DNA from: an uncultured Acidobacteriota bacterium
GTDB taxonomy: Bacteria > Acidobacteriota > UBA6911
Assembly: GCA_963827655.1 (NCBI GenBank)
Contig: CAWHCF010000022.1
Coordinates: 224,001-288,000 of the forward strand
Direction: 5' to 3'
Length of the DNA: 64,000 nt
Under the pieces are notes generated by a model. The model saw only the letters and a program-made list of their open reading frames with translations. It did not search any database and was not told where the DNA came from. Below, piece by piece: positions 9,658-58,204 of the stretch. Made by a program: the position numbers and the translations under genes. Within the stretch, counting starts at the first letter, position 1. Each line of letters begins with the position of its first letter.

Positions 9658-9748
9658 CGATTGACGATTGACGATTGACAATTGACGATTGAAGCTACCG
9701 GTTGTCATGGTTTCAAATCGTCAATCGTCAATCGTAAATCGTCAATCG
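9658..9748. repeat. Palindromic heptamer element E4
   Basis: Inverted tandem GACGATT arms between ADOP4 and ADOP3. Confidence 0.95.
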
Positions 9749-9750
9749 CC

Positions 9751-19445: not shown

Positions 19446-19671
19446 CGGTGATGGCCCGCACGGACTATCCGCTCGACCACTCACAGAGCCGGGGAAAAAT
19501 GCCCTGCCTTTGTATTCGATCCGGCTCTCCAAACGTTTTTGGGTACCTGCTCCTTGTCAACTAATCCCAAACGTCGCTAAGATTTATCTTGAGGTTGACT
19601 CTCAGGTACACCGTTTGCTCTCCGTAAAAAGGTATTCCTGCACGCAGTCAACGAGAATAAGGAGGCAAGTG

Positions 19672-20347
19672 ATGCTGCGAAGCAATCTTCTGAGACTTGG
19701 AATTTTGTCGTTCCTGGCATTGAGCCAGCTCCTCCCCGTGATTGCAGAGGATAAGCTGGGCCGGGCGGTGGAGCTGTACGAATCCAAGAAATACTCTGAA
19801 GCCGAGGCGGCTTTACGCGAAGTGCTGGCCGAGGAGGCTGGTAATTCTCGCGCCCGTCACACGCTTGGGTTAACCTTGCTGGCGCTCAAAAACTACGGAG
19901 AGGCCGCAAATGAACTCCAAAAAGCTGTCGAGGCCGGTGGGGCGAGCGACACACTTCAGGTGGATCTGGCCCGCGCTTATGTGGAGCTCAAGGAGTGGGA
20001 CAAAGCCGAGGCCGCTTTGAGAGCAGCTGAAGAAATCAAGTCAGACAATCCGGATATCTACTACTATCGCGGAATGGTCGGCTGCGGCGCGCAAAGATTA
20101 CGCCGCATCAGTCGCAGGGTTCGAAAAGGCGATCGAACTCAACCCCTCCCATGCCTACGCGCACTACTATGCCGGACTCGCTTATAACGCCCTCAGGCGG
20201 AGTGACAAAACCGTGCAGCATTTCGCCATCTTTCTCAAGCTCGCCCCTGATGCGCCTGAGGCCAAGAAGGTGGAGTCGCTGCTTCGTGTCGCTTCGGTAG
20301 ACCTGATCTTTGCGTCATCGCAGCTCGCGACCCCCAGGACTCGTTGA
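19672..20347 (+). CDS. Secreted TPR protein; frameshift near 20080; 3' end uncertain (20300-20347)
   Basis: GGAGG RBS at 19661; MLRSNLLRLGILSFLALSQ signal; TPR continues AHYYAGLAYN in the shifted frame. Confidence 0.75.
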
Positions 20348-23400: not shown

Positions 23401-26400
23401 TGGCCCTTGCCCTGAGAGATCTTCGCCTCGAGACTCTGGGAGGAGAGTTTCCGAGCGGCATGACCGGGGTCGTGGATCTCCAGGTGAGCGCCGAGGCGCC
23501 GCGACTCGATCTCCAATCTTTGTCCGGCAAGGCAACCTTCGAGAGGTTGCGCCTCCAGATGGAGCAGTACGTGCTGGAACAGGCTGAGCCGTCGACGATT
23601 GTGGTTCGCGACGGCGTGGCGGCGATCGAGCGTTTCGCCCTGACGGGACCCAGGACGAAGCTTCAGGCGAGCGGCACGGCCGGGCTCGGCGGGGATCTGC
23701 CGCTCGATCTTCGAGTCGATGGAAACTTCGATGCGGGGATTCTCACCTTCATGTCGGAGCAGGTCAGAGCGGTGGGAGAGACGCGCCTCGGGCTGGCGCT
23801 TGCCGGGACAGCCAATGCGCCGCTTTTTTCGGGATTCCTCGAGCTTCAAGATGGCCAAGCGACTCTCGCGAATCCGAGGATCGACGCCGACGACCTGGAC
23901 GTTCGCCTCAAGTTCGCCGCGGATTCGGTGGCAATCGAAAACCTCACCGGACAGATCAACGGCGGCTCGCTGCAGGGGCGTGGCTCGGTGGGTTACAGGG
24001 AAGGCGACGTCGCGGATTTTAACATCGACCTGAAGGCCGAAAACATGTTCCTCGAGGCTCCCAAAGGCCTGAAAACGCTTGCGAGCGCAGACCTGAAGGT
24101 TCGCTCTCCCGAACACTGGATCGAAATCGGAGGTTTGGTACAGATCCTGGAGGGCTCTTATCGTGAACCGCTCGAAATCGATAGCGAGCTGCTGAACTAT
24201 CTCCGGGCCGACCAGGTCGCAGATTTAGGCGACAGAACCCAGCCCTCTTCTTTCGAGGATTCGCTACAACGTTTCGCTCGAAACCAAGACCCCGATCATC
24301 GTGGACAATAATCTGGCCAAGCTGGCGGCAGATGCGAATCTCAAGCTCGTCGGAACCTACTATCGTCCGGCGGTGGTTGGGCGGATGCAGGTGGAAGAGG
24401 GGGGCGAGATTTATTTGAACGAGAGAAGGTACTACGTTGAAAGGGGAAACATCGATTTCACCAGCGAGACTCGAATCGAGCCCTCGCTCGACATTCAGGC
24501 CAAAGCCGAAGTCAGTGGCTACGACATTGATCTCCATGTCAGTGGTCCGCCCAAGAAGATTTCCACAACCCTGACCTCGGACCCGCCGCTACCCGAACCT
24601 GACATAATTTCATTGCTGCTTACCGGCCGAACCTTGGAGGCCGTTCAGGGCGAGGAATTCGAGGTGGCGAGAGAGCAGGTTTTTTCGTATCTGGCAGGCC
24701 GCGCCGGCCAAAGAATCTCGGCGGGCGCACAGAGGGCGCTCGGATTAAGCGACGTGCGGATCGAGCCCAGCCTGATCTCCCCCGAATCAGACCCGGGAGC
24801 GCGCCTCACCATCGGCCAGGACATTACTCGAGACTTTCGAATGATCTACTCGATGGATCTTGTCGACAGCGGGAAACAGACCTGGATTCTCGAATACGAT
24901 CTCACCCGGAGATTCACCACCCGTGGAATCAAAGACGATGAAAACGACTATCGATTCGAATTCGATCACGAACTGCGCCTGGGAGGCCCTCCCCAGACGA
25001 AGCAGTATTCTCGTGCCAGGTCGCAACCGAAAAACCGGGTCGGTTCCCTGAAGTTTGCGGGTGACTCGATCTTCCCGGAGAAGACCCTGACCGATAAACT
25101 CGGCGTGAAGCCAGGGGACAAGTACGACTTCTTCAAGCTCCGGAGGGGCACGGACAAACTGCAGAACTTCTACGCAAAACAGGGACACCTCGAGGCATTG
25201 ATTCGACTGGAGCGCCAGCCCCAAAACGGGGAGACGGATCTGACCGTGCAGATCCAGCCCGGTCCCCAGGTAGAGTTTGTTTTCGAAGGCGCCGAGGTCT
25301 CAGGAGATGTGAAAGAGAAAGTTCGGCAGCTTTGGAGCGAAGGCGCCTTCGATGCCCAGCGCGCCGAAGATGCGTTGAAAGTCATTCGGAAACCTCTGGT
25401 CGAAGACGGCTATCTCCAATCCAGCGTGAACTACTCAGTCGAAGAGCTGGCTGACCGAAAGCGAGTCCGGTTCAGCATATCGCCCGGGACGCGCTTCACA
25501 GACGTCGACCTGGTGTTCACGGGCGCTTCTGGAATTGAAGCTTCCGAATTGAAACGCCAGCTCGAAACCGCGGACCTGCGGACCTCTGTCTCTACTGAAC
25601 CGCGCCAGGTTGCAGACTTTTTGAAGCGCCTGTATCAGAAGCGCGGATACCTGCAAGCCGAGATTGAGCCGCCGCGCCTGGAACCCGGGCCTCAAGCAGG
25701 GTCGGGCCAGATGATCATCACGATCAAGGAGGGACCGCTGTTCAAGGTCGGGGATGTGAATTTTTCCGGCCATCGCCATTTCAGCAAAGAGAGGCTTCTG
25801 CAAGCGATTCCTCTGGCAACCGGAAAAGAGTACAGATCGCAGCTCATCGATGAATCCCTCACCGGGCTTGAGCAGCTCTACCGCAGCAACGGCTTCAATG
25901 AGGTCATCATCAGCTATCGGATCGCGCGCGACCCAGGCGCCGCGCTGGCGAACTTCTCTTTCGAAATCGAAGAGCACCGGCAGGGGGTGATACGGGAGAT
26001 CGTCATCGAAGGAAACGACCGGACCAGCGACGGATTTGTGCGCCGTCAGCTGAGCATCAGTCAGGGCGACCTGCTCGATCTGGACAAGATAGGTCGCTCT
26101 CGAACGAAGCTGTACAACACGGGCGCGTACACGATTGTCGATTTCCAAACCGAGGAAATTCAAGAGCCGGGGATCAACTCGTCCTCTGAAATCAAACCAG
26201 TCCGGATACGAGTGAAGGTTAGCGAGGTCACGTCCCTATCGCTTCCGCTATGGAGCTTTCTATGATACCGAACGCGGCGTCGGCGTGATCGCCGATCTTG
26301 CCCACCGGAATTTTCTGGGCAAGGCCGCCGTTGTTGGGGTGAGAACCAGGTATGACTCCGGCCTTAAAGAGGTTCGCGGCTATTTCGGCCAGCCCTCGGT

Positions 26401-27246
26401 CGTAGGTATACCGCTCCGGACTAATGTCACGGCCTTTTCTCACCAGGGAAATCAACGAGGCCGAGCAATTCATAACCGACAGGACTCGGATTCTCTCTCC
26501 AGCAGCAGAAACGCTTTAGAAACCATTCGCTCCTGGAATACGGTTATCGCTACGAGCGCGTCCGGTCCTTTGACAAGGAACCGGAATCCGCTGTTCCCGG
26601 ATCCCATCAGTTTGCCTCTCGCTCGTCTCTTCAGCACGATAACCCGGGATACGCGGGATGACCTGCTGGACGCCACCCGGGGCTCTTTCACCTCACAGGG
26701 GCTGGAGTGGGCGACCGAAAAACTTGGCTCGGACTTTCGTTTCATCAAGTATTACGGTCAGTACTTTTATTATCGTGCCCTGCGTAAGCCGATCGAAGCG
26801 GACAACGGCTTATCTCGGCCGCGGCTGGTCTATGCGGTCGGAGTACGGGCAGGATTGGCGAAGACGTTCAAGGGAGAGTTCTTGATTCCGAGCGGAACGT
26901 TTTTTTGCCGGCGGCGGCACGACGGTACGTGGTTTTGAGCAAGACCTGCTCGGACCGCGGGATGCTTTGGGAGACCCGCTCGGCGGCGAGGCGGTTTTCA
27001 TCCTGAACAACGAATTGCGCTTCCCGATTGTCTCTATTTTCGATGGAGTCGGATTCGTCGATCTCGGGCAACGTTTATTTGAAGGCTTCCGATTTCAATC
27101 CATTCGACGTGCGTAAAACTGCAGGTGCCGGGCTTCGGCTGCGCACATCATTTCTGCTTCTGAGACTCGACTATGGATTCAAGCTCGACCGGAAACCGGG
27201 CGAGAGTCGGGGCGGGTTATTCTTCAGTATCGGCCAGGCATTTTGA
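20417..27246 (+). CDS. TamB (AsmA-like/DUF490)-POTRA-Omp85 (TamA/BamA) fusion; multiple frameshifts
   Basis: N-terminal TM anchor and beta-taco repeats; DUF490-like segment continues in frame into POTRA domains in ORF 24301..26265; FFAGGGTTVRGF loop motif; ends FFSIGQAF. Confidence 0.8.
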
Positions 27247-34188: not shown

Positions 34189-37100
34189 TCAGAACTCCAA
34201 GCTGAAGATCAGAATCGTATATAGCCTGCCGCCCAGCCCCGAGAAACTTCCTTGCGTGCTTGTGATTTTCCCAAACGACTGGGGGTTCGTGAAATTAACC
34301 GCATTGTTCGGCGCCGAGAAAAAGGGAACCTTGAAAGGATTGTTGACGTCGACCCGCAGCGTTCCCTTTACGCGTTCCCCCACCAGGATCGTCTTGGCCA
34401 GAGTCACCTGATGCCAGAGCAAGCCGGGGCCGGTAACAATGTTGCGGCCCGTCTGCCCCGGCGTGAAAGACGCCGGGTAAGCGAAAGCATTGAGGTCGAC
34501 CCAGGGTTCCTTGCAAGACACGATATGACGGCAAGGTCCGCTGCGATCGAACGGAATGCGAATGTCGTCGTAGGTTTTACCCGGCGCCAGATTGGGTCGC
34601 AGGGTTCCCGGGAGGAAAACGTTATTCGAGCCGGCAAGGTGAAGGTCAAAGGCGCGCCGCTCTCGATCGTCTGGATCATGCCGAAGCGCCAGTCGCTGAT
34701 CAGTTTGTTTACAAATCCATTGCCGTCGCTGGCAAACTTTCTCCCTCGGCCAAACGGCAGGTCGTACAAACCGTACGTCACCCAGCGGTGCGCCACGTCG
34801 TAGCTCGAACGCCCCTTCTCCAGCCGGCGGTTGTAGAAAGTGATGCCGCCCGCGCCGGCGTCGTTGCTCGACTCATCCAGCGCCTTGCTCCAGGTATAAA
34901 AGGAGGTCAGGTTGAACCCCATCGAATAGCGCTTGTCGATTTTCAGGGTTCCTGAATGGAAGCTGTTGTGGCCGTAGTTACTGTAATGGGATATGGCGCC
35001 GAAATGCGGGTAGGGACGGAAGTTTTGCGAGGCCGTCCGTATGCGGTTGAGCTCGTCGAAGCTCTGCGCGATATCGAGAGGAATGGCGTTGATGTCCCAG
35101 CGGTTCAGCAGGCCGACCCCGGAAGAGCCCTGATAGTTGGCTTCGAGAACCAGACTATCGCCCAGCTGAAACTGAAGCCCGGCATTCCAGTTGAGGATAT
35201 AGGGCGACCGCATCTGGGGATCGAAATAGGACGCGGCGCGGCCGCTGTAATTCGTGCCGAGAAATGGGGCGGTCCCGTCCGGCAGGACGTTGAACGCGAA
35301 GGACGGCGGCCCCTGCCGCAGGTAAAACGCGGTGCTGGGATCTCCGGGCGGAGGCTGCACGACCGCGGTGGCAAGATACTCCTCGAAATTCTCGCGCAAC
35401 CCGGTGGTCCAGAGATCGAGAGTGTTCACCGCAAATCCGCCGCGGAAGACCCAGTTCTTGGCGAAGTTGTAGGCCAGCCCCAGGCGGGGTTGGAAGTTAT
35501 TCAGGTCGCGCGCGGCAAGGTTTCCGTCAGGGTGAAGCAGACCCCCTCTTTGTCCGGTCAATGGATCGATCGCGTCGGGACTGAACTGGGTCTGCTGGCC
35601 GTACTTGGTGTTGAAGGGGGTCTCATACTGCCAGCGCAGTCCGAGGTTGAGAGTCAGATTGGGCGAGACCTTCCAATCGTCCTGGAAATACAACGAGTGA
35701 GTCCACCAGCGGGGAAGCCACGTGGCCAGCGCCTGAGTGAATTCGGCGCGCACCACGGAACCCAGCAGGAACGACGCGAATTGATTGCCGGTGTTGGGCC
35801 GGAAGGGAAAGTCTGTGCCGCCGAACGTGTATCGCCCGGAAGGCTGCTCGACCAGAATTGAATTGGCCCGCGTCCGGAGCAGTTCGTATCCGGCCTTGAA
35901 GGTGTGCCGGCCTCGCACCATGGTCAAGTTTTCCTGCAGGCTCATATTCTCGGTCACTTCGCCTTCCTTGCCTTCAGGAAACCTGGCGTCAAAGAGGTAG
36001 TCGGTTGCGGTGCGCATGAAGCCGGGCATGGTCTGGCGCTGGGGCATTGGGTATGCCAAGCTGCTGCGCCCAGTTCTGATCCAGACTCTCCGGAACACGC
36101 GAGAACTTGCGGCGATTCCCGCCCACGCGAATTTCGTTGATAGTCCTGGGACTGAGCGTGATGGTGTCGGAGATCACGACTTGCGTCTGGTCGATGGGAA
36201 TGGGAGTGTGGTTGTAATCAAAGATCGGGTTTGCATACTGAACGTTCCAGCGATCGAAAAACGACCGGTGGCGGTAGTTCGAGAGACGACCGAAGATCTT
36301 ATGATCATTCGAAAATGAGTGATCGATCTTGTAGTCGGTGCCGGTGCGGTAGGAGCGATAGACGGTATCCGCGCTGAGGTTATTCATCGGCCCGGTTCGA
36401 GTCATGAACGCCTGGTTGAAGCGGTTGTTTTCGGGCGAGTACGGGTTGAAACTGAGAAACTTCGCAGCCACCGGGTCAAAACGGCTCTGCGGTATCTGGT
36501 TGCCCGGGAACTGCGTCCGGGAATAAGTGCCGTCCGCGAGCCGGACCGTCGTAGCCGGGTCGTAAATGGGATCGCCGATTCCGCCGAAGCTGAAATCGCC
36601 CGCCATCATCGCCGGACTCGGGACGGTACGCTGAGCGTCCTCTGAAGCTTTTTCGTGATGACGCTGAAAGCCGATCAGAAAGAAGGTCTTGTTGTGCCCG
36701 TCATACAGCCCCGGAATAATGACCGGACCACTCAAGGCCCCGGTTATCATGTGATACCCGAAGCTTCCCAGCGGGATATTGGGGTCTTGCCAATTTCGGT
36801 GAATCTGCTCCTTGCTCAAGTAGCGCTCTTCGGCCAGACCATGAAACTGGTTGGAGCCGCTCTTGTACGTGATATTCATGATCCCGCCGCCCGAGTGTCC
36901 GTATTCGGCGGGAAGCGCGGTGGTCAATACCTTCACCTCTTCGATGTTCTGCTCGACGGTCGCCAGGAAGCGATTGGTCGCAATCTCGCCGCGCACCGGT
37001 TCCATCCCGGAAACTCCCTCCATGGTGGCGACAAACGCTCGCGAACGCTGCCCGCCAACGTTGCCGCCGGCTCCCTGAGATGTGACGCCGGGCATGTACC

Positions 37101-37553
37101 AGAGGATGCTCTGGATCTTCTGCTGCGGGGTCGGCAGCTTGTTGCGGATATCGCCGCTCACGAGATGCCCGACGGTCGAGGTTTCGGTTTCGAGCAGCGG
37201 CGTCTCGGCCTTGACCTCGATGGAATCGACCACCTGGCCGATTTCGAGAACTACGTCGACACGGGTTGTCTCCGTCGACCGCACCGTGATGTTGCTGTTT
37301 ACCGTTTTTTTGAAACCCTGAGCCTCGAAGGTAATTTCGTAGGTGCCAGGGTTGAGGTACGGAATGCGATACATCCCCTCTTCGTTGGTCAACGCGTCGT
37401 AGGTAAAACCGGTTCCGCGTGCTGCAAGTGCACTGCCACTCCGGGAACAATTCCGGACGTCGTATCGGTAACCCGCCCGACAATGGTCCCCTGTCCCGTC
37501 TGGGCGAAGGCATTTGCTGTAATCAGAAGCAGAAAGGTCGCGCAACGCAACAT
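34189..37553 (-). CDS. TonB-dependent receptor (Acidobacterial Oar-like); several frameshifts
   Basis: MLRCATFLLLITANAFAQTGQGTIVGRVTD; PAEYGHSGGG; QDDWKVSPNLTLNLGLRW; ends FSLEF. Confidence 0.88.
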
Positions 37554-37744: not shown

Positions 37745-39617
37745 ATGACAAACCTCCGGATGGCGTTTCTCGTATTGATCTTCTTCTCGGCCACGGTGTC
37801 GGCGAAAGACATCACCCTGGTTATCGATACACCTCTTGCGCCCCCGGGTTGGGCATTGATGGAACGGGAGCTTCTTCGAGCCAATTCCAGCGCATGCGAA
37901 CGCTTCGCCGCGAAGTATCTCGATCAGCGCGGATACCTGCTGCATACGCCGCGGTGGGGCACTCTCGACGGACCCGACGACGCGATCGAAACCTTCCACA
38001 ACTGGACTCTCCTCCATGCTCTGGGAGGTTCGGATTCCGTCCTCCGGCTGTTCAAGAAGGCTCTCGAAGGCCACCTTCAACAATATAAGGAACTGCGGAC
38101 CAGCAAGACCGAACTGGCCAAAGACGGCGCCTACTACAAGGAATTCATCACCATGTCGGATTGGTTCCACACGGGCGAAGGGATGCGCGGTTTCATGTTC
38201 CTGGGACTTAGCGACCCAACCGACGAGCGGCTGAGCCAGCGCATGCGGCGATTTGCAGGTTTTTACATGAACGAGGATCCGGAGGCGCCCAACTACGACC
38301 CCAAGCACAAGATCATCCGCAGCCTGTGGACCGGCAGCAAGGGACCCATGCTCCGTAAAGCCACGACCTACGACTGGGTGGGAGACTCCGTGCCCGGCCG
38401 CTTCCACGCGCTTCACGGCCCTGCGGGGCGAAGACGAAATGGTCGATCTCGAAGCCCACTACCCGAAGATGCTGGCGCATTGCGCCGAGTACCTCGACAG
38501 CGTGGGAGATCACCCGCTCAACCTCGCATCGACCAACCTGGCGCTCAATGCTTACATGTTGACCCACGAACAAAAGTACCGGGACTGGACCCTGGAATAC
38601 GTCAACGCCTGGAAGCAGCGGACTGAAGCTAACGGGGGGAACATCCCCACCAACATCGGCCTCGACGGAACCATAGGGGGCGAGTACGGCGGCAAATGGT
38701 ACAAAGGCACCTACGGCTGGAACTTCACGATCTATGACGGCGAGATCGACCAGATCGGCCATCGCAACACCTTCGCCTCGGGAATGTGGCCCGGGTTCGG
38801 CAATGCCCTGCTGCTCACGGGCGACCAGGCCTACGTGGCCACTCTCCGCCGGCAGATGGACAATCTCTACGCTCAGAAAAAGACCGTCAATGGAAGAGTG
38901 ACGATCCCTCAGATGTATGGCGACCCTCGAGGACACGGCCAAACCGGCCAGGAAAGCTGGTATCACTGGACGACGAATCTATTGACAGATCGGCTGACCG
39001 AAATCTACCTCTGGTCGATGGACCGGAAGGATCTGGAACGGGTTCCCCAAACGGGTTGGATCGGATTCCTGGAAGGAGCTCAGCCTGACTTTCCCGAGAC
39101 GGCGTTGCGAGCGGATTTCCAGCATATCCGGGCCAAAACCGCAGAGATGCGCAACGATCCGACCACGGCGGACACACGCCTTGCGGATTGGCCCATGGGC
39201 CTGAATCCGGCGACAACCCAGACCCTGGTCAATCTGATGCTCGGAGGATACCTGACCGGTAACATCTGGACCCTGCACAGCCGGGTCCGTTACTTCGATC
39301 CCATCCAGCGGCGTTCCGGCCCGCCCGAGGATGTGGCGGCACTGGTGGAAAAACTCGGGACGGACTCGGTGACATTAACCCTGGTGAACACAAACCAGGT
39401 TCACCCGCGCACCGTGATCGTGCAGGCCGGCGCATACGGCGAGCATCATTTCAATTCGGTCGCTTTCAATGGCAAGACCGAGGCCGTGGACCATCCCTTC
39501 GTCACGACCCGGCTTGAGCCCGGATGTGGAACCCGGATGGTGTTTACCATGAAGCGCTATGCCAATCAGCCGACGGTGGCGCAGCCCTGGGATCGAGGAT
39601 GGATGGTCAAACGCTAG
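37745..39617 (+). CDS. Secreted hypothetical protein (about 620 aa); frameshift near 38435
   Basis: AAGGAG RBS, signal peptide; ORFs 37724..38626 and 38439..39617 join. Confidence 0.75.
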
Positions 39618-40254
39618 CCTTCGAGTCTTCGCGTCCCGGCGGTGAGTTTTCTTCTGCAGCGCGTGCGACAAGATAGGCAAGCGAGCGGCCGGTCCCGCTT
39701 CGAAGCCGCCCCGCCCATGACGTGTGGATTCTGGGCCACTCCGATTGCGCGATCACGCCGCTCTCGACTACCTCGAAACCCGCCGCTCGATAGCTGGCCG
39801 TCAGCGAAGGCGTCATCGTACCGGCAAGAACCGGATCAAGCCCCAGCCGCGTAATCTCGGAGCGATCCCTTCGGGAATCGAGGCTGATGACGACCTCCAG
39901 CCACGCGCCCGGCGCGCAGATGCGTCGCAGGTTTTGGAGCACGCGATCCTCGCCGCCGGCCAAAGCGCGAAGCAGACTCCCCCAGGGAAAATGCACGTGT
40001 ACTTCGTCAGCCACACCGTCGAGCTCCGAGGGGAGTTCCTCGACCGAGGCATGCAAGAACAGAATATTCGGCACTCCCCCCTTCGCACGCTTCCGATGGA
40101 CTCTTTCAGAGACCTTCTTCAGGGCTCCGGCGCTGGCGTCTATCCCGATGTAGAAGCTCCCGGGATTGCGGCGAGCGCACTGGTATACAAAGCGCCCGTC
40201 GCCCGTCCCGAGATCGATGATCACGCCTCCGCCGGTAGGGAGCAATGAGATCAA
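39607..40254 (-). CDS. 16S rRNA (adenine(1408)-N1)-methyltransferase-like, NpmA/KamB family
   Basis: IDLGTGDG, YIGID, KGGVPNILF, ELPSELDGVAD, FPWGSLL, TSWAGRL follow the NpmA/KamB motif order. Confidence 0.85.
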   Translation of the reverse strand: MISLLPTGGGVIIDLGTGDGRFVYQCARRNPGSFYIGIDASAGALKKVSERVHRKRAKGGVPNILFLHASVEELPSELDGVADEVHVHFPWGSLLRALAGGEDRVLQNLRRICAPGAWLEVVISLDSRRDRSEITRLGLDPVLAGTMTPSLTASYRAAGFEVVESGVIAQSEWPRIHTSWAGRLRSGTGRSLAYLVARAAEENSPPGREDSKASV

Positions 40255-44176: not shown

Positions 44177-44254
44177 TCTTGGTGTTTCTTCGTGTCTTCG
44201 AGTCTTGGTGGTATTTGTTCCGCAGCGCTAACCACAAAGACACGAAGACACTAA
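44177..44254. repeat. Palindromic octamer element (TGTTTC subfamily)
   Basis: tcttggtgtttcttcgtgtcttcgagtcttggtggtatttgttccgcagcgctaaccacaaagacacgaagacactaa. Confidence 0.9.
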
Positions 44255-48565: not shown

Positions 48566-48647
48566 TTCGTGTCTTTGAGTCTTAGTGGTGCTGGTTAGAC
48601 AGCTCTAACCACGAAGACACAAAGACACGAAGAAACACTAAGAGCCC
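48566..48647. repeat. Palindromic octamer element
   Basis: ...taaccacgaagacacaaagacacgaagaaacactaagagccc. Confidence 0.88.
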
Positions 48648-48792: not shown

Positions 48793-50592
48793 ATGATGAA
48801 GACCATCCGTCTGCTTGTGCTTCTCCTGCTCGCGGCTTCCGCCGGCGCACGCCAGCTGCCGGAAGCGACCGAAGCGGGCGCTCGCCCCGGCCTGTCGCGC
48901 CCCGCCGTCGCCGGGCAACATGGCCTCGTGGTTGCCGGTCATCCCCTCGCTTCGATGGCCGGCGCCCGCACGCTGCTCAAGGGAGGGAGCGCAGCCGACG
49001 CCGCCGTTGCGATCCTGGCGACCCTCAATGTCGTCGAACCCGAGATGTCCGGGGCGGGGGGCAACGGCTTCATGCTCGTCTACGATCGCAAGAGCGAGAA
49101 GATCTACTCGCTGTCCATGACGGGCGCAGCCCCCAAGGCTCTTCGCCCCGAAGCCATGACGGCGGAGACACTCAGCACGGGTATCGACGCGGCTCCTGTG
49201 CCCGGCCTGTTCGGTGGCTGGATCGCAGTCCTCGAGCGGTTCGGTACGCTCCCGCTCGGCGATATCCTGCAGCCGGCGATCGACTACGCGGAGAACGGTT
49301 TCCCGGTCGACCCGCCGCTGGTGCGCAGCATCGAGTCGAGGCGGGCCGACTTGCAGCGCTTCCCGACGAGCGCGCGGATCTTCCTCCCCACCGCGCGCCC
49401 GCCCGCGGCGGGCGACCTCCTGAAGAACCGCGATCTGGCCGCGACCTTCCGCAAACTGATCGACTCCGAGACGGCGCTCTTGCGGCAGGGAAAACCGCGA
49501 ACCGACGCGCTGCGCGCGGCCCACGACCGCTTCTACCGTGGTGACATCGCCGCAGAAATCGTGCGGTTCACCAAGGAGGCCGGCGGTTCGATGTCCGCGG
49601 AGGACCTGGCCGCCTATCAGCCGCTCTGGTCTGAGGCGCTTCACACGACGTACCGTGGCTACGACGTCTACTCGACACCGCCGACCTCCCGGGGCGGGCT
49701 CGAGGTCCTGATGCAGCTTAACCTCGTCGAGAGCTACGACCTGAAAAGCCTCGGAGCCGGAAGCGCCGCGGCGCTGCACCTCCAGGCCGAAGCGATCAAG
49801 GTCGCGAAGTCCGACGTCTACCGCTACGTCGCCGACCCTCGGCTCACGCGGGTTCCCACGATCGCGCTGCTTTCCAAGGAGTATGCCGCCGCGCGGCGCA
49901 AGCTGATCGATGCGGCGAAGGCCGGCCCGTATCCCGAGCCTGGCATGCCCCAGGGTACCGAGCGTGCGCTCCGGGCACAGCGCGCACCCAGGGGCGAGAG
50001 CGTCGTTGAAGGCCACACGACAAGCTTCTCCGTCGTGGATCAGGCCGGCAATGCCGTTGTCTGCACGCCGACTCTCGGGAGCGGCTTCGGCACCGCCGTC
50101 GTGGTCGGTTCGACCGGCCTTCTCTTCAACAACGGCCTTCGGACTGGCTCAACGGCACCCTATTCCGATCACCCGAACTACGTTCGTCCAGGGCAGGTCC
50201 CTCTCCTCAACAACTCACCGATTCTCGTCTTCAAGGGCGGGCGGCTGGTCCTGACGCTGGGCTCGCCGGGCGGCGAGACGATCGGGCAGACGCAGTTCCA
50301 GGTCCTGATCAACGTGCTCGACTTCGAGATGCGGATCCAGGAGGCGATCGAGGCACCCCGATTCGCTCTCGATGCCTCGCCGAACTTCTACAAGCCTGGT
50401 GCCGGCATCCGCCTGCGGATCGAACAGGGGGCGGCGGCGGACGCGATCGCGCGCCTGCGCGCGCTGGGCCACTCGGTCTCCGTGATGCCGCGTGGTCTCG
50501 GCAGCATGCAGGGGATCCTGGTGGACCCGAAGACCGGCGCCCCGGCAGCGGGAGCGGATCCCAGGCGGCTGGGCTACGCGATCGGCTGGTGA
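48793..50592 (+). CDS. ggt: Gamma-glutamyltransferase family protein
   Basis: GGSAADAA, SGAGGNGF, HTTSFSVVD (catalytic Thr), GSPGG, GADPRR. Confidence 0.92.
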   Translation: MMKTIRLLVLLLLAASAGARQLPEATEAGARPGLSRPAVAGQHGLVVAGHPLASMAGARTLLKGGSAADAAVAILATLNVVEPEMSGAGGNGFMLVYDRKSEKIYSLSMTGAAPKALRPEAMTAETLSTGIDAAPVPGLFGGWIAVLERFGTLPLGDILQPAIDYAENGFPVDPPLVRSIESRRADLQRFPTSARIFLPTARPPAAGDLLKNRDLAATFRKLIDSETALLRQGKPRTDALRAAHDRFYRGDIAAEIVRFTKEAGGSMSAEDLAAYQPLWSEALHTTYRGYDVYSTPPTSRGGLEVLMQLNLVESYDLKSLGAGSAAALHLQAEAIKVAKSDVYRYVADPRLTRVPTIALLSKEYAAARRKLIDAAKAGPYPEPGMPQGTERALRAQRAPRGESVVEGHTTSFSVVDQAGNAVVCTPTLGSGFGTAVVVGSTGLLFNNGLRTGSTAPYSDHPNYVRPGQVPLLNNSPILVFKGGRLVLTLGSPGGETIGQTQFQVLINVLDFEMRIQEAIEAPRFALDASPNFYKPGAGIRLRIEQGAAADAIARLRALGHSVSVMPRGLGSMQGILVDPKTGAPAAGADPRRLGYAIGW

Positions 50593-50665
50593 GCGCGCCT
50601 TTTTTTCGTGAGGAGTCTTTTCCGGGATGTACGAGGCACCTTTGATCCTCAGGGTTTCGACAAGC

Positions 50666-50716
50666 CTTGGTGTTTCTTCGTGTCTTCGTGTCTTGGCGGT
50701 ATTGGTTCCGCAGCGT
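50666..50716. repeat. Single-arm octamer element
   Basis: cttggtgtttcttcgtgtcttcgtgtcttggcggtattggttccgcagcg; abuts the stop codon at 50717. Confidence 0.85.
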
Positions 50717-52787
50717 TCACTCCCGGCTGTTCCCGAAATGGAAATGCAGGACTGTTTCACTCGGAACGGCCTGATTGCCGCGGCGCGCAGGTGAGAATCG
50801 CCACTGGCGCGCCGCATCGGCCGCGATGCTCGAGAGATATTCCGTCAGGCTGTTTCCTTTTGAAAGCGGCTCAGTCCGAACCACAGTTCCGCCGGCGTCG
50901 ATGTAAACCTTGACATCCACCTGGAGACCCGCCACCGGGAGATTCCTCAGGCTCGAGGGAAGATAAGGCGCAACGCGGCGAACCGCCTGGGGTGCCACAT
51001 AGTCGGCACTCGGACCCTGAACGCCACCTGCGAGAGAATTCCGCGGGGCGGGCGCCTCCGGAGACGAATTCCTTTCTGGTACGATTCTGCTCGTCTCAGT
51101 CCTGACAGGTTCACTCTTGCTTGCCACAGGCGCGATCGGCTGGCCGGGCGGCTTCGCCGGCTTCCTCCGGCGGACGCGCGGCGTCGGTAACGTTGGGCGA
51201 GGACTCGGATGGGGACGACAGTCTGGCTTCGCCGGCGGGTACGACCGACGGCTTCGGTGGAGCAGACTGGCTGGCCGGTGGAGGGGCCGCCGGTTGCGGC
51301 ACATTGACCTCCGCGGCTTCCGATCGAGGCAAGGTAACCGGCTTCTCAGACGGTGATGGCGCCACTGGTGCCGCGCCGGACGACGGTTTCACCGCGGCCG
51401 GGGTTGAATCCAGAACGGGTTTCTCACTGGCTGCCACGGCCGGCGGCTGTTGGATATCAGCCTTAGCCTTCTCCGCCTCCGATCGGGACAAGGGAGCCGG
51501 CGTCTTAGACCGTGATGAATCAGTCAGGGGCGTCCCGACCGGCGTCTTCACCGCCGGAGGCGCCGGGTCAGGAACCGGTTTCTGGTTAACCGTGATGGGC
51601 GGCGGCGTCTCGACTCTAGTCGAAGCGGACTCCACTCTGGCTTGCGGCGGCGCGGGTGTGCCTGCTTGCCGGGCCCTGAGGATTCGTGCCGACTCGGTCG
51701 TCTCCCTGTCCGACCCGACTACCCTCAGGCGAACGGTGACATCGTCCGATTCGTGAGGATAGACCAGGGCGCCGGCTTGAAGCTGGTCCGTGCTCAGCGT
51801 CAGCTGCCTCCTGGCGGCCCGGTCGGCAATTGACAGAATGGCCTGTTTTGCGGACGCGATTGCGGGAGAACTTTTGTTCCAGGTGATGCGGAGTAAATCA
51901 TTTTCCACGGTAGCGGTCAGGTCCAATTCGGTAAGATCGTGACCCAGCGACCCAGTCGGCGCGACATCAGGCTTCAGCAGGTACTTGTAGCCGACGCCGC
52001 CGAGTACCAGGGCCAGGACTGCCATCGCCGGCCAGAGAAGACGCCGTCTGGCCTGCGATGGCGCGAATTGTGGAAGAGCGACGGTCTGGATGGGAGCTGG
52101 CTCGAGCATAGGCTCACGAACCAACTCCGAAGGATCGGATCTGAGATGGACGCACCACGGCTGGTGCGGGTCGAAGTTCGACTTCGGCCGAAGGGCTCGC
52201 CTCAACGGGCGCGCGGTGAGCCAACCTGGTACGGTTTAAAGGAAACACCAGCTTGGGATTCGACTCGACTCGTCCTTCTTCACAAAAGAAAAAAGCTCCC
52301 ATCGCGAGCCGCGCGCTTGAGGGTTGGATGAGCAGGATGGCGCCGACCGAATTCGGAAGGTATTCCTTCGCCAGGAGCATATCTTCATCATCGAGGTTAA
52401 CCGCCTCCCGGTTGTGGCTGCGGTAGTAACCGACGACATAGAGCTTCCTTCCCGGCCCGGGGTGCCATCTCGCCATCTGATCATGCATGAGTCGTTTGTC
52501 GGAACCCGAAAGATGGTAAACGGATCCGAACTGGTGCTCACAGGGAACGGGCGTAAAACCTTCGATGATGATTCTGCGGCGGGAATCGGATTCGATCCTG
52601 CCAAGCAGCAATCCACCGACTTCAGCACCACCTTCCGGCGGCGTAAGACTCCGCGTTATTTCATAGTCCAGCCATTCGACCGTGCTCAGATGCAGGTGAA
52701 CGGAGAGTTCAGTCTCAGGCACATCCCACACGGAAAACGTGGGGCCACGGAACCGTTTATTATCATGTCATCGGTGGAATTCTTCAT
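50717..52787 (-). CDS. JAB/MPN-like domain - TM - Pro-rich linker - TonB C-terminal protein 1; frameshifts near 52740, 52200 and 51150
   Basis: EVGGLLLG...VVGYYRSHNREAVNLDDED; TM LLWPAMAVLALVLGGVGY; C-terminal VDVKVYIDAGGTV...AARQWRFSPA. Confidence 0.75.
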
Positions 52788-52951
52788 GGTGGGCTTCCTT
52801 CACATCCTCAAGATCAGTCCCTACCGCATGCGTGGAACCTATGGGCGGGCGTGACTTTTGAGGATTATACCCAAAACCTGAGTCAGGAAGAGAGTTTTCT
52901 AGAGGAAATCGGTTACTTCGAAATGACTAGCCCGAATGGCTAACTCTCAGG

Positions 52952-53036
52952 GGTGTGTTTCTTCGTGTCTTGGTGGTATTTGTTCCATTGGCTCTAACCA
53001 CTAAGACACGAAGCCACGAAGAAACACTAAGAGCCC
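52952..53036. repeat. Palindromic octamer element
   Basis: gtgtttcttcgtgtcttggtggtatttgttcc...taaccactaagacacgaagccacgaagaaacactaagagccc; abuts the stop codon at 53037. Confidence 0.9.
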
Positions 53037-55428
53037 TTAGTCCTTTTTGAATTGGAACCCGACCACCGCGCTGCTCGACACGTTCTGACTCGCCTGCCGG
53101 GCAGGCGCGAAACGCCACTGACGCGCCGCCTCGAGCGCGAGAGAGGTAAGGAAGTCGTGTTTTCCTTTCGAGACCGGTTCAGCGCGGACCACTCTTCCCG
53201 TCGCGTCAATTTCTACCCTGACGTTGATTTGAACGTCCTCGCTAATCAGGTTACGAACGTTGGAAGGAGTCGAGGGCTTCACTTGCCGAAGAGGCCGCGG
53301 GGGCGTGTAGTCGCTCCGCGTCTCTGGCGCGGGTTGAGCCGAAGGCGGCGCGACCTCGGGCGGAGCGGGAGTTTTCTCGGGTAGCGCGACCGGTTTCGCC
53401 GGTTCGCGGGAGGTGGAAGCCGGCGGCTGTTCCTGAGCGGTCCGGGCGGTGTCGGGCGGACGCGCCGGTTCGGTGACCTTGGGGGGTGGCTCGACGGGCG
53501 GGCGCTGTGTCGTCTCACTCGGCAAGGGTGCCGAGGCGGTCTCGGCAGGGGGAGTAACTGGTTTCACTTGCTCCGGGGCAGTAGTTTGCGGGCGTTGGGG
53601 CTCGTCGCGCTGGGCGGCGACCTCGGCCGGCTTCCGCTCTACCACGCCCGGGCTCGAGACCGGGGGCGGAGGGAGGGTTGACCTTGCACTCGTCGCCCGG
53701 GATGTCGGAGGGGGTGTGGCTCGGGCTAGACTAAGCTGAGATGGCCCGGCGGCTTCAGGATTCCGGTTCCGGCGAGAGCTTTCGGTCTGGGCCCTGGTTC
53801 CCGATCCTCGGCCGCTACTCGGTGGAGACCGGTCGATTTTGATTGTGGGTACTCGATCTCTTGATTCTGCTCCAGACGCGCCCGAACGAGCAACCGCCGT
53901 GCTAACGACGCCGACTGCCGGGGTTGATTCGACGGTTTCGTCGTTCGCTCCGATAACCTGGAACGAAACGGTGACTTGACTGGTGTTATGGGTGAGAGAC
54001 TACGTTTCCGGTCTGCAGCTGGGGGGCTCCAAGATTCACGTTCCTTCTCTCACCGCCATCCAAAATCGATAAAGAGCCTCTTTTCGCCGTCGCGATCGAA
54101 GGTAAGTCTTGGTTCCAGCTCACGCGAAGTGAATCCCCTTCGAGCAGCACTTCCAGGCCCAGGGCAGCTGGTTGAAGGACGGTAACCTGCGGTCTCGTAA
54201 TGCCGAGGCTGCTGAAGAGTCCGGCTAGCGATTTCGGCATTTCTGATCCGCGCAGAAGTTGATAGCTCGCGGCACCGACAACCAGGATCAGGATGGCGAC
54301 GAGCATCATCCCTGCCCAGGACCGCCACCTCGGCGTCTCCGGTTCGATAAGGGGAAACATGGGTACCTGGCTCGGCAAAAACTCGAGCTCTGCCTGATCG
54401 GCCGCCTGAGGGAGAAGTTCTTCCAGTTCGAGTTCTTTCCCCTTGGGCGGCGCGTGACCGCGCCTTTCGGATGGTCTCGGAACGTGAGCTACCGGTTCGA
54501 ATTCTGTCTCCTCAGGCGGCTGGTGACCGCGCCTTGCCGACGGTCTGGGAGCGTGACCTTCCGGTTCGAATTCTGTCTCCTCGGACGGCAGGTGGTCTCG
54601 CCTTGGGAATGGCTTCGGGGCAACCGGCTCCGGTTCGAATTTTCTCTCCTCAGGCGGCTGGTGGCCGCGTCTTGCGGATGGTCTCGGAACGTGAGCTCCC
54701 GGTTCGGATTTTTTCTCCTCGGACGGCGGCTGGGCTCGCCTCGGGGGTGGCTTCGGGGCAAACGCCTCCGGTTCCAATTCTCCCTCGTCAGAAGCGGAAA
54801 ATGGCGGGGCCACGCCCTCCGGCATATCTTCTTCCTCTGTTTCCGGAAGGGAATCCAATGTCGTTTCGCCGCGGGTCAGCCGGCTTCGGCTGAAAGGAAA
54901 GATCAAGTTGCATTCGCGCTCGACATGCCCCTCGTCGCACAGGAAAAGACCACCCACGCGATCACGTTGCCCCACAGGTCTGATAAGCAGAAAGACGCCG
55001 ACCGAATCCGAGAAAAACTCCTTCGCCAGGGACACATCTTCGCCGTCCAGGCTGAAGTCTTCCCGGTTGTGACTCCGGTAAAACCCGACTACATAGAGGT
55101 TTCTTCCCGGACCGCGCTGCCACCGAAATAGCTGCTCCTGCAGGAGGTCCTTATCGGATTTAGAGAGGTGGTACAAGGAACCCGACTCGTATTCGCACAA
55201 CACCGGCGTGAAGCCTTCGATGGTAATCTTGTTCCACGCCTTCGATTCGATTCTGCCGAGGAGCAGCCCACCCACTTCGGCTCCCTCCGGTGCCCTCAAA
55301 CTCTCCCGGATCTCGTAGTCCAGCCATTCAACCGCGCTCAGATGCAGGTGTACCGCCATCCCGCGGTCGGGAATTTCCCATACACAGAAAGCCGAGATCG
55401 GCAATCGTCCAGTTCCAGCAGAACTCAT
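53037..55428 (-). CDS. JAB/MPN-like domain - repeats - TM - Pro-rich linker - TonB C-terminal protein 2; frameshift near 53995
   Basis: EVGGLLLG...VVGFYRSHNREDFSLDGED; TM MMLVAILILVVGAASY; C-terminal VRVEIDATGRV...AARQWRFAPA. Confidence 0.78.
54425..54781 (-). repeat. Intragenic 69-bp (23-aa) tandem repeat, about 5 copies
   Basis: GGTTC anchors at 54494, 54563, 54632, 54701 and 54770; unit like EFEPEGHAPRPSARRGHQPPEET. Confidence 0.9.
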
Positions 55429-55457
55429 AGTTTCAAAAGGGCCGCGCTCAAGATTAA

Positions 55458-55535
55458 TGGTGTTTCTTCGTGTCCTGGTGTGTCAGAGGTATTGTTTTGC
55501 AGCCCTGACCACGAAGACGCCAAGAACACGAAGAC
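55458..55535. repeat. Palindromic octamer element
   Basis: tggtgtttcttcgtgtcctggtg...gaccacgaagacgccaagaacacgaagac. Confidence 0.82.
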
Positions 55536-55687
55536 TGAACGCTTCATTAATACTCTACCAGTAATCGGCAACTCCAGTCTCTTCTCTTAAACCTTACGAG
55601 TTTGAGAAGACAACAGATTTTAATCATATCATTCTTCGGTCTTTGCGTCTTTCTGGTTAATTTTTAGATACAAGAGAAACCCGAATC

Positions 55688-58204
55688 TCATCTCGGTCTC
55701 GGTTGTGCGTTGATAGCCGAAAGAACTGAGAGGCCATGAGTTCCATAAAGTGCGAAGCCTCCCACTTCGTCATCCGCCGTGATCGTGATGTATCCCGACG
55801 AAAGCGCCGTGACGGCCAGGTTGGGGAAGAATTCGGTCAGCAGCTTGCAACTGCGCCCTCTCCTGACAACTACCTCGGTCGTCGAAGCAAGAAGGCTGCC
55901 GTTGCTGTCGAAAACCTGGATGTTCGCGCTGACGTCGGTATCGCGGGGATTTGTGATTGCGATGCCCGTGAAATACGTCGCGTCGGAGGCAACCTGGCTG
56001 AAGACCAACTGTTTTTGAGACGCGCTCACCAGCGGCAGCGCTGCGGAAAATGAGTTTCTTTCGGGATCCCCGAACACAACCGTGCCAATGATCCGCACGC
56101 CACTCGTGACAATTTCTACGTACCCCTGCCTGGTTCCCCCTGGCCCTATGAAGAACTGCTGATCGCTAATGTACAGCTTCCCGTGTCGGGAAATTGGCAT
56201 CTGCCTCGGGGAACCGATCGGAGTTCCATCATCGCCGATAAACCGGAAATTCACCGTGCCGGGATTCGAATCGAGGTTCACGATCGACAGAGTGGAGCGC
56301 CAGGGTCCTCCAACCACATACTGTGGCGAATACAGCCTGGTACCGCCTGAAGTAGAATCGAAACCGTTGACCGCCTGCGCGTACCGATCCGGCCTGGCGA
56401 GATACTCAAACGGGACGATCTCGCGCTCGGAGGTCGCGCGGATGTAACTGGAGCCGATTAGAGCCGCGCCTGGGAACAGATCTGAAGCCGATTCCACGAG
56501 CGCCCCGTTGCCGTCGATGTTTCTGGCCGCTGACGCTACCGCCGTCCCGTCGGCCCCGACCAGTTCGAAATTAATCGCCGTCGACTCCGCGTTGGGATTC
56601 ACGACCTGGACCCGGGTTACTCCTTGTTCCTCCAACTCGGGCAAGACAAACCCCGTCAACGGGCTTACCGAGGCGTCGGCGCCATCCAGAACCGTAAGCG
56701 ATCGGTCGTAGGTCAGAAAAGAGGCTGCGATCTGGCGCGATGTGCTTTCCAGCTTGACCCATCCCACGGAATTGCTTCCGGCCAATCCCGGCCCGAAGAG
56801 CCGGCTGTCTGTCAGGGCGCTCTGTTCCCCTGGACGGAGTGCCACTGAAGTCGGATTCGTGATGTTGGAACCCGTTATCGGACGCCCGGTCCTGTCATGG
56901 GCAGTAAACATCAGGGTGGCCGCGCTGGCGCCCAGGTTCGCGACTGCGATCCCGGTGTACTCACCCGCCGAATCGTTCGTGGTCACCAGGTCGGGGAAAT
57001 ACAGCGTGGGGGTCGCCGGAGCATCGGGATTCACGATCCGGGAAACCGAGCCCTCCAGAGCCACCACATAAATCTCTCCAGCCTCGTCCTCGCCAAACGA
57101 TGAGAGGGACAGGTTCGTGTCGAGCAGAAGCGACGGCGCGCCCCCACTCAGCACGAAGATCTCTCCCGAACAGTAATCCGCGTAAACATACGCGCCCAGA
57201 GGAAGACTTCGCCGCGTCCCACGATAAACGTAGCCGCCGGTTACGGAACAGCGTCCCTGAGCTCCCGGAGTATGGGCGTATTCGGCTATCGGCGGAATGA
57301 AGCTTGCGGCGTTGCAAGGGCCGATGTTACATCGGTTCCCCTCGAAGACCCTCCAGCCATAGTTGCCCCCCAGCGTGATGATGTCGACCTCTTCGATAAC
57401 GTTTTGCCCGACGTCTCCGGCATAAAGCTGCCCGGTCACTCGATCGAAAGAGAATCGCCAGGGATTTCTTAGCCCGGTAGCGTAGATCTCGTCGCGGCCT
57501 TCAATCGGTCCGAAGAACGGATTGGTCGAAGGCGATGTGTAAAGCACCGACTGACTCTCAGGACGGTCGATATCGATGCGAAGCATCTTTCCCAGCAGGT
57601 CGTTCAAGTTCTGCGCCCGGTTTTCGGGATCGTTCCCGGACCCGCCGTCTCCCATTCCAATGTAGAGCAGGCGGTCGGGACCGAACTCAATCATGCCGCC
57701 GTTGTGATTCGCATAAGGCTGAGGTATGACCAGAATGATGGTTTCGGCCGGGTCTGCCACGTTTGGATCTGAGGCGGAGACGCGATACTCGGATACGACG
57801 GTGGCCCCATCGCCGGTGCGAGTGTAGTTTACAAAAAAGCGGCGATCTGACGGGAATCTGGGATGAAAGGCCAGGCCGAGCAGCCCCCGCTCGCCTCCCG
57901 CCAGTATTTTACTTCTGATATCAAGGAAGACGGCAGGCGCCGTCGAGCCGGGTTGAAGCACTCTGATACGCCCCGCCTGCTCGATAATGAAGAGCCGGCC
58001 GCTGCCATCGTGGGCGTTAGTCACATAGAGCGGACTCGACAATCCGGTCGCCACCACCGGTTCGAGCGCGATGCGAAGAGGCACCGAGCCGGGATTCTGC
58101 GCGAAAGAATTGAGGCCTTGCGGAGCGGCGGCGGCTTCCTGCCGCAAAGTAATTACGGCACAACAGCAGATGAGAGCCCGAAGAGCAATTCTCGCCGCTT
58201 TCAT
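55688..58204 (-). CDS. PQQ-dependent glucose/sorbosone dehydrogenase-like beta-propeller with C-terminal repeated domains
   Basis: [38 protein letters not shown]. Confidence 0.88.

Follow-up and report, generated by a model that had tools for sequence, protein, structure and literature searches.

A mostly acidobacterial family of single-pass membrane proteins that combines MPN-like, FN3-like, and TonB C-terminal domains

TonB of the Escherichia coli type (PDB 1xx3, 2gsk, 9ddo) is built of a short cytoplasmic tail, a single transmembrane helix, a Pro-rich periplasmic spacer, and a C-terminal domain called TonB_C. Two adjacent paralogous genes, here called A and B, encode the last three of these features and lie on the minus strand at 50717-55428 of a 64,000-nucleotide stretch of DNA (the window) from an uncultured Acidobacteriota bacterium (GCA_963827655.1, contig CAWHCF010000022.1, positions 224,001 to 288,000), in whose own numbering the coordinates below are given. 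In place of the short tail of TonB, the family of A and B has a cytoplasmic region of 170-370 residues that bears an MPN domain, and it differs from TonB further in an FN3-like domain after the transmembrane helix, no conserved transmembrane His, no exbBD genes seen nearby, and weak TonB_C scores in the clade of the window copies. The transmembrane motif of the TonB energy transducers is absent, and the family is at best a putative member of these. A and B are single-pass inner-membrane proteins of an uncharacterised, mostly acidobacterial family, in which three known folds (MPN, FN3, and TonB_C) are combined in an arrangement for which no description was found; the family is real, large, and unstudied.

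GltJ of Myxococcus gliding is the nearest working analogue; GltJ/AgmX and GltG are likewise composed of a cytosolic module, one transmembrane helix, a flexible region, and a periplasmic TonB-C domain. In the passages of one article that deal with the layout of GltJ, its cytosolic module is described to bind MglA (MglA-GTP) and AglZ (PMC11135422). GltJ has ZnR and GYF domains together with Agl motor and Glt partners, whereas the family has an MPN domain. Neither A nor B has a ZnR or GYF Pfam match, their scores against the NCBIfam model myxo_SS_tail (NF033768) are 16.4 and 12.5 bits against a cut-off of 40, and no glt/agl genes were seen among the annotated neighbours (for 82 relatives the 15 most frequent gene clusters, and for 50 relatives with TonB_C the 14 most frequent). 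SjdR is another TonB-like protein with a role in septal and cell wall structure, and a section heading of the article that describes it states that it is not involved in siderophore transport (PMC8262864). Fusions of an M56 (BlaR1-like) peptidase with TonB_C, which like the family join a sensor-like N-terminal part of a peptidase family to a TonB C-terminal domain, occur among the TonB homologues of Bacteroides thetaiotaomicron, according to passages of a preprint (10.1101/2023.07.07.548152). The soluble MPN fold of the family has no relation to M56, a zinc peptidase that crosses the membrane several times, and A and B have no M56 Pfam match.

On the cytoplasmic side, the family shares the MPN fold with the non-catalytic domains of Rpn8/Mov34, CSN6, and KIAA0157/Abraxas2 and with a Caldiarchaeum Rpn11-like JAMM enzyme (Foldseek E 2e-8 to 4e-6); among solved structures, its closest relative in sequence is the last of these (6fjv). 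The H-x-H zinc site of the family is incomplete, a trait shared with MPN-minus proteins; the substitution follows one fixed pattern (R-S-H/N-T/N-R), whereas non-catalytic MPN proteins show scattered loss, and the domain is tethered to the bacterial inner membrane with no evident MPN+ partner. Literature searches on TonB/JAB/MPN fusions and on Acidobacteria returned no description of an MPN-TM-FN3-TonB_C arrangement (TM, transmembrane helix), in agreement with the preliminary description of this DNA, which knew of no characterised protein built in this way, and the word TonB has no occurrence in Iyer et al. (2006; PMC1779556).

Domain architecture and the altered JAMM site

The order of parts in A and B is the same: an MPN-like domain, one transmembrane helix, an FN3-like beta domain, a Pro-rich spacer, and TonB_C, all encoded on the minus strand. 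The preliminary description had already proposed this layout for two paralogues, and the open reading frames (ORFs), Pfam matches, and structural models confirm it. The MPN-like domain, placed in the cytoplasm, lies at 54877-55383 in A and at 52222-52731 in B. Pfam JAB (PF01398) matches A at E 0.022 (15 bits) and B at E 2.2e-4 (21.5 bits), both below the gathering cut-off of 22.5 bits, and the domain of A is also a row in an alignment of N-domains, A3. Whether the N-domain has an MPN fold was a test set beforehand. The AlphaFold2 model of this domain (approximately 170 residues, alignment of 137 sequences) reached a predicted local distance difference test (pLDDT) of 88.3 and a predicted template modelling score of 0.81. 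Among the matches listed by Foldseek against the PDB, all are MPN proteins (E from 2e-8, TM-score 0.40-0.62), including KIAA0157/Abraxas2, BRCC36, the Caldiarchaeum Rpn11 homologue, CSN6, Rpn8/Mov34, and Rpn11. As modelled, then, the N-domain has the MPN fold that had been claimed for it. Its neighbours in the ESM Atlas are just JAB-named and unnamed clusters at 0.90-0.93, which agrees with MPN and adds nothing to it. A homodimer prediction with two copies of residues 1-178 (A3) scored 0.00 against a mark of 0.42, with controls not run; this speaks neither for nor against a dimer, and dimerisation has no part in the mechanism proposed below.

The motif sequences are GFYRSHNREDFSLDGED in A and GYYRSHNREAVNLDDED in B, and both read E...R-S-H-x7-D-x2-D, with A continuing as E...R-S-H-N-R...D-x2-D. 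The N-domain-only profile (A3, 56 sequences) matches 6fjv at E 2.2e-6, and this alignment pairs E37 (EVGG) with the catalytic Glu, R104 and H106 with the first and second His, D114 with the JAMM Ser, and D117 with the Asp, by which the exchanges read earlier from the letters, first His to Arg and Ser to Asp, proved exact. A regular expression for the motif matched 137 of 157 family proteins scanned. The position of the first His is Arg in 135 of these 137; R-S-H is found in 110 and R-S-N in 19, the second His being Asn in those 19. The alignments A1 and A3 agree in the invariant residues G40, L42, G44, R104, and D117 and in a conservation of at least 90% for E37 and R108; G101 and S105 show no variation in A3 and reach at least 90% in A1. 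At the place of the JAMM Ser, the family varies between D, S, T, G, A, and E, and both window copies have Asp.

Judged from these alignments, the altered motif is a family-wide signature and not local decay, and the JAMM zinc site is replaced throughout the family by a conserved E...G-[YF]-[YF]-R-S-H/N-[TN]-R...D pocket. The fixation of Arg for the first His across the family, together with Asn for the second His in 19 of 137, argues for a non-zinc pocket; the earlier wording, "pseudo-protease or re-wired domain", is sharpened accordingly by the same two features. The upstream catalytic Glu (E37) and the Asp of S-x2-D (D117) are the JAMM features retained. Because the H-x-H and Ser features are absent and the Pfam JAB matches stay below the cut-off, the family does not belong to the JAMM enzymes.

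Between the MPN domain and the transmembrane helix, A has an in-frame cytoplasmic linker repeat at 54422-54791 (Tandem Repeats Finder) with a period of 69 nucleotides (23 amino acids) and approximately 4.4 copies of the type ...PRPSARRGHQPPEE.EFEPE.... B is without these repeats, and related metagenome contigs differ in the repeat region of A by many substitutions and a net 3-base indel. The single transmembrane helix follows at 54253-54318 in A (WAGMMLVAILILVVGAASYQLL, from translation and hydrophobicity), with no His and with R/W residues on its N-terminal side, and at 51975-52034 in B (LLWPAMAVLALVLGGVGYKYLL, preceded by RRR), where it corresponds to residues 58-77 in the model of 51111-52205. 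A Kyte-Doolittle scan of 139 family proteins of at least 300 amino acids found exactly one hydrophobic segment in 117, none at the threshold in 21, and two in one. A GxxxG-like motif is present in many transmembrane helices of the family, which is a hint only.

The small beta domain (LRITWN in B, LRVSWN in A) of the preliminary description is present in both proteins and can now be refined to an FN3-like sandwich on the periplasmic side. In B, it lies at 51672-51923 (model residues 95-178, pLDDT 89-98); VIA-align places it with FN3 domains (Z 9.7-8.4, root-mean-square deviation 2.3-3.1 Å over 79-87 residues for most listed rows), and Foldseek matches it to FN3/monobody chains at E 5e-4 and a target TM-score of 0.6-0.7. 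The corresponding domain of A, at 53922-54165, is assigned by homology to the modelled domain of B and is cut by a frameshift at approximately 53990-54000. Pfam fn3 gave no sequence match in A or B. The periplasmic spacer, more than 200 residues long, is Pro/Ala/Ser-rich in A (53229-53921) and Pro-rich in B (50924-51671); it was taken from the translations, and the stretch of B has a pLDDT below 60.

The TonB C-terminal domain of A (53046-53228) matches Pfam TonB_C at E 1.5e-6 with 29 bits, over the cut-off of 24.6, across profile positions 18-78 of 79. The divergent domain of B (50735-50923) reaches E 1.9e-4 and 22.3 bits, under the same cut-off, and matches NCBIfam TonB PRK10819 at E 2.2e-5. 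The family profile matches E. coli TonB (1xx3) at E 2.2e-8. The topology would be N-in, with the MPN domain in the cytoplasm and the FN3 domain, spacer, and TonB_C spanning the periplasm, because no signal peptide is present, basic residues precede the transmembrane helix, and TonB_C is a periplasmic domain.

Gene integrity and extent of the family

In the window, both genes are broken by single-base indels. Gene A (53037-55428) begins with an ATG at 55428, is read as an ORF of 480 amino acids to 53986 (53986-55428), and then passes into another frame up to the stop at 53037 (second ORF 53037-53645, 202 amino acids); discounting a single extra base near 53990-54000, it would encode approximately 796 amino acids. 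The intact metagenome orthologue P0014 (780 amino acids) aligns with A by tblastn at 81% identity in frame -3 (55428-53989) and 80% in frame -1 (53990-53040). Gene B (50717-52787) was delimited by tblastn of P0002, DNA alignment with the Joint Genome Institute (JGI) metagenome contigs L088 and L091, and further metagenome contigs. It consists of three overlapping ORFs, 52114-52731 (205 amino acids), 51111-52205 (364 amino acids), and 50717-51304 (195 amino acids), which would give approximately 689 amino acids with the breaks discounted; the stop is at 50717. The intact P0002 (690 amino acids) matches B in three frames at 83%, 70%, and 66% identity, with switches at 52150/52148 and near 51152. 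B truly begins with an ATG at 52787-52785, and its first residues, MKNSTDD..., are shared with P0002 and the paralogue L002; this start stands one base out of frame with the remainder of the gene. Approximately 120 bases upstream of this start (52830-52950, minus strand) are near-identical in L088 and L091, whose sequence further upstream differs; this stretch holds TATAAT and an AAGGAAG ribosome-binding-like motif, and a scan of 50500-55700 for sigma-70 consensus promoters found no site.

Four breaks are present in total, each a single-base indel: one in A at approximately 53990-54000 and three in B at approximately 52765, 52149, and approximately 51152-51160, where the preliminary description had counted two in B. 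They were compared with Logan contigs from four soil or rhizosphere metagenome runs of four studies (90-99% alike), which cover three of the four sites and leave 52149 uncovered. One base is left out at 53998/54000 in A in three of three covering runs, one base is put in at 52764/52765 in B in three of three, and one base is left out at 51159 in B in the sole covering run. The remaining indels listed in these contigs have lengths divisible by three (position 51598, 3 bases; position 53539, 9 bases; positions 54689/54693, 2+1 bases). L088 and L091, 93-96% identical over the start of the N-domain of B, also carry the extra base near 52765 that brings MKNSTDD into frame.

Four copies of the N-domain are encoded in the own genome of the window (8.18 Mb, 53 contigs, 90% complete). 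The two outside the window are uninterrupted ORFs of 634 (L002) and 570 amino acids (L004), each with the complete architecture within a single ORF. The orthologues P0002, P0004 (752 amino acids), P0014, and P0003 are also intact in metagenomes, and a TonB_C-like end was found by our own hidden Markov model (HMM) on 51 of 163 N-domain ORFs from loci fetched from reference genomes and metagenomes. Because of these intact single-ORF paralogues and orthologues and the soil-metagenome contigs without the indels at three of the four break sites, the JAB and TonB-C parts belong to one gene, as had been claimed, and the fusion is real.

We conclude that the genes are functional in the lineage, and the indels of the window are most likely assembly errors rather than marks of pseudogenisation. 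Splitting of a like kind affects at least three more genes in the window, including a MacB_PCD/FtsX permease in three overlapping-frame pieces (6947-9652), a CarboxypepD_reg/OMP_b-brl_4 barrel resembling a TonB-dependent receptor (TBDR-like) in two pieces (34404-37545, Pfam positions 2-253 and 258-720), and a TPR protein in two overlapping frames (18435-20187), which points to indel errors in this part of the assembly. It is improbable that the window copies are real pseudogenes, that is, decaying duplicates, the function being left to the unbroken copies on other contigs. The density of indels, four in 4.7 kb, is higher than elsewhere in the window, and most TBDR-like genes of the genome are unbroken, which suggests that the assembly is not uniformly error-ridden; moreover, P0010 (204 amino acids, on a 203-kb contig of a second assembly) stops at the same place after the 52149 break, and this break, the one that lies outside the independent contig coverage, could be real in the strain. 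Against decay stand the three covered sites, all intact in independent soil-metagenome contigs, the like splitting of the other window genes, the absence of in-frame stops and larger deletions in A and B, and the ratio of nonsynonymous to synonymous differences (pN/pS) of the N-domain of B (0.12 against L088 with 18 differences and 0.11 against L091 with 8 differences).

The N-domain family is without a Pfam model of its own. A phmmer search with the N-domain of B against 1.84 billion cluster representatives returned 2322 proteins at E <= 1e-3, 1008 at E <= 1e-10, and 25 at E <= 1e-30, each being a cluster at 50% identity. The core of the family is made up of MPN, the transmembrane helix, and FN3. 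Pfam TonB_C was found in 16 of 80 proteins (E <= 0.01) and 24 of 77 (E <= 5e-4), together 40 of 157; a family-specific HMM found it in 43 of 139 proteins of at least 300 amino acids, and Pfam SnoaL/DUF4440 occurs in two of 80. In a quick maximum-likelihood tree of the N-domain (137 rows, support by the Shimodaira-Hasegawa-like approximate likelihood ratio test, SH-aLRT, and midpoint root only; a careful search is unfinished), the TonB_C label changes 12 times against 34.7 with shuffled labels, and TonB_C fills several clades, while a clade of 71 rows has none.

The search of genome contigs found 301 stretches encoding relatives. Nearly all of the best 80 of these 301 are titled Acidobacteriota (Bryobacterales, Bryobacteraceae, Solibacteraceae, and Terriglobia); they include the cultured Paludibaculum fermentans, which bears a short form, and two metagenome-assembled genomes labelled "uncultured Bordetella sp." Within the phylum of the window, a single-protein search found a match in two of 151 genomes, and a profile search of a sample found the family in eight of 301 genomes at E <= 1e-10 and in none of six from the same taxonomic family; most genomes searched thus gave no match, which, in a sample, is no proof of absence. 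Since the profile found so few carriers, the four copies in the own genome are unusual among sampled relatives. A tandem pair like A and B occurs in just one other of 162 fetched loci (L162:8235-11698), a metagenome contig whose MPN-TM-FN3-TonB_C copies are 35% identical to each other and read R-T-Q in one and R-S-H in the other.

Candidate functions and gene neighbourhoods

A and B are tentatively read as non-canonical TonB-like adaptors that span the envelope and carry a non-catalytic MPN binding module. The TonB_C end would dock by strand addition on a TonB-box-like strand of an outer-membrane barrel, or on peptidoglycan, and the zinc-less MPN domain would bind rather than cut, tying the envelope contact to a cytoplasmic partner or ligand; coupling of the adaptors to ExbBD is not indicated. 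They would be non-canonical as TonB because no transmembrane His or S-H-L-S is conserved and because ExbBD is found neither beside the four paralogues of the own genome nor among the commonest neighbours. In TonB, the transmembrane His within the S-H-L-S pattern couples the protein to ExbBD. This pattern is not conserved in the 35 transmembrane segments found among 40 TonB_C-bearing members, a His being present in one of the 35, near the segment end, and the helices of A and B both have none. The own genome has four ExbD genes at three loci, which lie beside or near other TonB_C matches and beside none of the four paralogues. ExbB/ExbD genes are absent from the window neighbours of A and B, and the commonest neighbour clusters of the 82 and 50 loci include no ExbB/ExbD, anti-sigma, or ubiquitin-like genes.

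A more specific version, to which a low probability is given, takes the invariant R-S-H/N-T-R...D pocket as a new ligand or partner site made from the JAMM active site, and the family as a hitherto unrecognised class of acidobacterial couplers across the envelope, in which a cytoplasmic cue read by the MPN domain would gate the state of outer-membrane barrels or the cell wall by way of FN3, spacer, and TonB_C and without ExbBD, or the reverse.

Gene neighbourhoods were also considered as functional evidence and rejected, as the recurrences reflect synteny among kin and the commonest clusters alone were annotated. Around the 82 relatives, a divergent TP_methylase adjoins the gene in 51; ferrochelatase is found in 19, LpxD in 18, a ClpB-like AAA protein in 14, and a signal peptidase in seven; a TBDR-like cluster occurs in eight at scattered positions, and 10 have an extracytoplasmic function (ECF) sigma gene at a distance of 3 to 8 genes. 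Around the 50 TonB_C-bearing relatives, an FAD monooxygenase was found in nine, GT4 in seven, a LOG-like protein in five, a CDP-alcohol transferase in four, and LpxD in three. The short form of the family (MPN-TM-FN3, 340-440 amino acids; e.g., L022:6941-7936, Paludibaculum fermentans) stands head-to-head with this TP_methylase-family gene, possibly rsmI-like, in the 51 loci, often with LpxD, ferrochelatase, and signal peptidase genes close by.

Several points weigh against the adaptor reading. A partner has been identified on neither side of the membrane, and the neighbourhoods are uninformative, the TP_methylase adjacency being order-level synteny among kin and the LpxD, GT4, and CDP-alcohol transferase neighbours recurring weakly. 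The TonB_C domains of the window clade score 22-30 bits, whereas the six best TonB_C matches of the own genome reach 54-82 bits; therefore, binding of a TonB box by them is only assumed. ExbBD encoded elsewhere may be usable despite the missing transmembrane His, and the conservation of E37, H106, and D117 could fit a catalytic site of altered chemistry equally.

Of the alternatives, the first holds that A and B are true energy-transducing TonB paralogues, in which ExbB-ExbD from elsewhere would energise a subset of TBDR-like barrels while the MPN domain regulates or localises the protein. This is rather unlikely. It would account for TonB_C and the Pro-rich spacer, and the own genome has 67 scored matches to the TBDR-like barrel family PF25183 (from 348 first-look candidates in 8.18 Mb), so that, with at least 67 such matches against three ExbD loci, orphan TonBs are plausible. 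The C7 paralogue (L086, G000:C7:13000-32999; 9862-11766), which is intact and abuts a Y2_Tnp transposase fragment (9341-9865), is surrounded by TBDR-like genes, some of which are split, and another protein, of 484 amino acids and with a strong match to TonB_C, is encoded nearby (13637-15091). The C23 paralogue has metabolic genes without relation to it on its sides. TonB homologues of Bacteroides with extra N-terminal domains (M56 peptidase) have also been reported, as passages of the preprint cited above indicate. Set against these are the transmembrane helix without its His or S-H-L-S, the absence of ExbBD from the surroundings of all four copies and from the commonest neighbours, and the weak TonB_C scores of the window clade; in addition, approximately two thirds of the family are without TonB_C, and the core function of the family cannot then be energy transduction of the TonB type.

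According to the second, which the preliminary description had proposed and which we consider unlikely, signalling would run from the outside in: the occupancy of an outer-membrane receptor would be sensed through TonB_C and passed to the MPN domain, which would control a regulator in the style of cell-surface signalling. The envelope-spanning layout fits this, the conserved cytoplasmic pocket suggests a specific partner, and the ECF sigma genes of the 10 loci mentioned above would be in place. The commonest clusters of the 82 and 50 loci, however, include no conserved sigma/anti-sigma, two-component, or TBDR neighbour. Known systems of cell-surface signalling work through FecR-type anti-sigma factors and the receptor's own signalling domain, not through TonB_C. 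The preliminary description had linked the pair to two TBDRs in the window, but 67 TBDR-like matches in 8.18 Mb lead one to expect one or two per 64 kb by chance, which accounts for those of the window and leaves this link without weight.

The third, a membrane-tethered peptidase or isopeptidase whose re-wired MPN domain is active, with E37 as base and with H106, D117, and others holding a metal, or metal-free with R104/R108 binding carboxylate or phosphate, draws on the retained JAMM Glu, second His, and Asp and on a pocket that is the best-conserved part of the protein, but it is improbable given the Arg at the first zinc ligand in 135 of 137 motif matches, the Asn at the second His in 19, including a TonB_C-rich clade of 18 rows (SH-aLRT 98, quick tree), the variable Ser column, the lack of ubiquitin-like, E1, and E2 genes among the annotated neighbours, and the pseudo-deubiquitinase chains KIAA0157 and CSN6 among the top Foldseek matches.

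Other features of the window and meaning of the family

A and B are flanked by a gamma-glutamyltranspeptidase and an amidase on one side and by a glucose/sorbosone-dehydrogenase-like protein and an ABC exporter on the other. Between the two genes, outside the proteins, lies an intergenic repeat (52955-53034, no strand assigned) with an inverted pair of the 18-mer CAAGACACGAAGAAACAC, delimited by a mismatch search and contig depth. The 18-mer or its inverse has six copies in the window with at most two mismatches, where none is expected, located at 44182-44199, 48621-48638, 50670-50687, 52955-52972, 53010-53027, and 55460-55477, mostly just outside the listed large ORFs. The depth of metagenome contigs over the copy between A and B is 49-110 against 0-11 in other bins, with many loose ends at 52955-53038, and the repeat looks like a REP- or MITE-like element (repetitive extragenic palindrome or miniature inverted-repeat transposable element) that is very abundant in soil metagenomes.

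Further away, an ORF of 215 amino acids at 39607-40254 (minus strand) has a Pfam NpmA match at E 1.8e-59 with 201 bits against a cut-off of 60; NpmA is a family of 16S rRNA (adenine1408-N1) methyltransferases known from aminoglycoside resistance. On the plus strand at 22284-26265, a TamB-like ORF (22284-24311) precedes a second one (24301-26265), in which the end of the TamB domain is fused to three POTRA repeats, and an Omp85 fragment (26285-26938) comes after it. These ORFs form either a TamB/TamA locus affected by frame errors or a fusion of an unusual kind.

Acidobacteria rank with the most abundant bacteria of soil, and little is understood of how their very large sets of TBDR-like barrels are energised and controlled. 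The family to which A and B belong comprises thousands of sequence clusters in which a conserved MPN domain with an altered zinc site is tied to the inner membrane; between a quarter and a third of its members, approximately, also have a TonB C-terminal domain. Should the pocket of the MPN domain prove to bind a defined partner, the family would be a new example of the deubiquitinase fold re-used in bacteria and, after GltJ, the second case in which a TonB-C protein connects proteins of the cytoplasm with the outer envelope.

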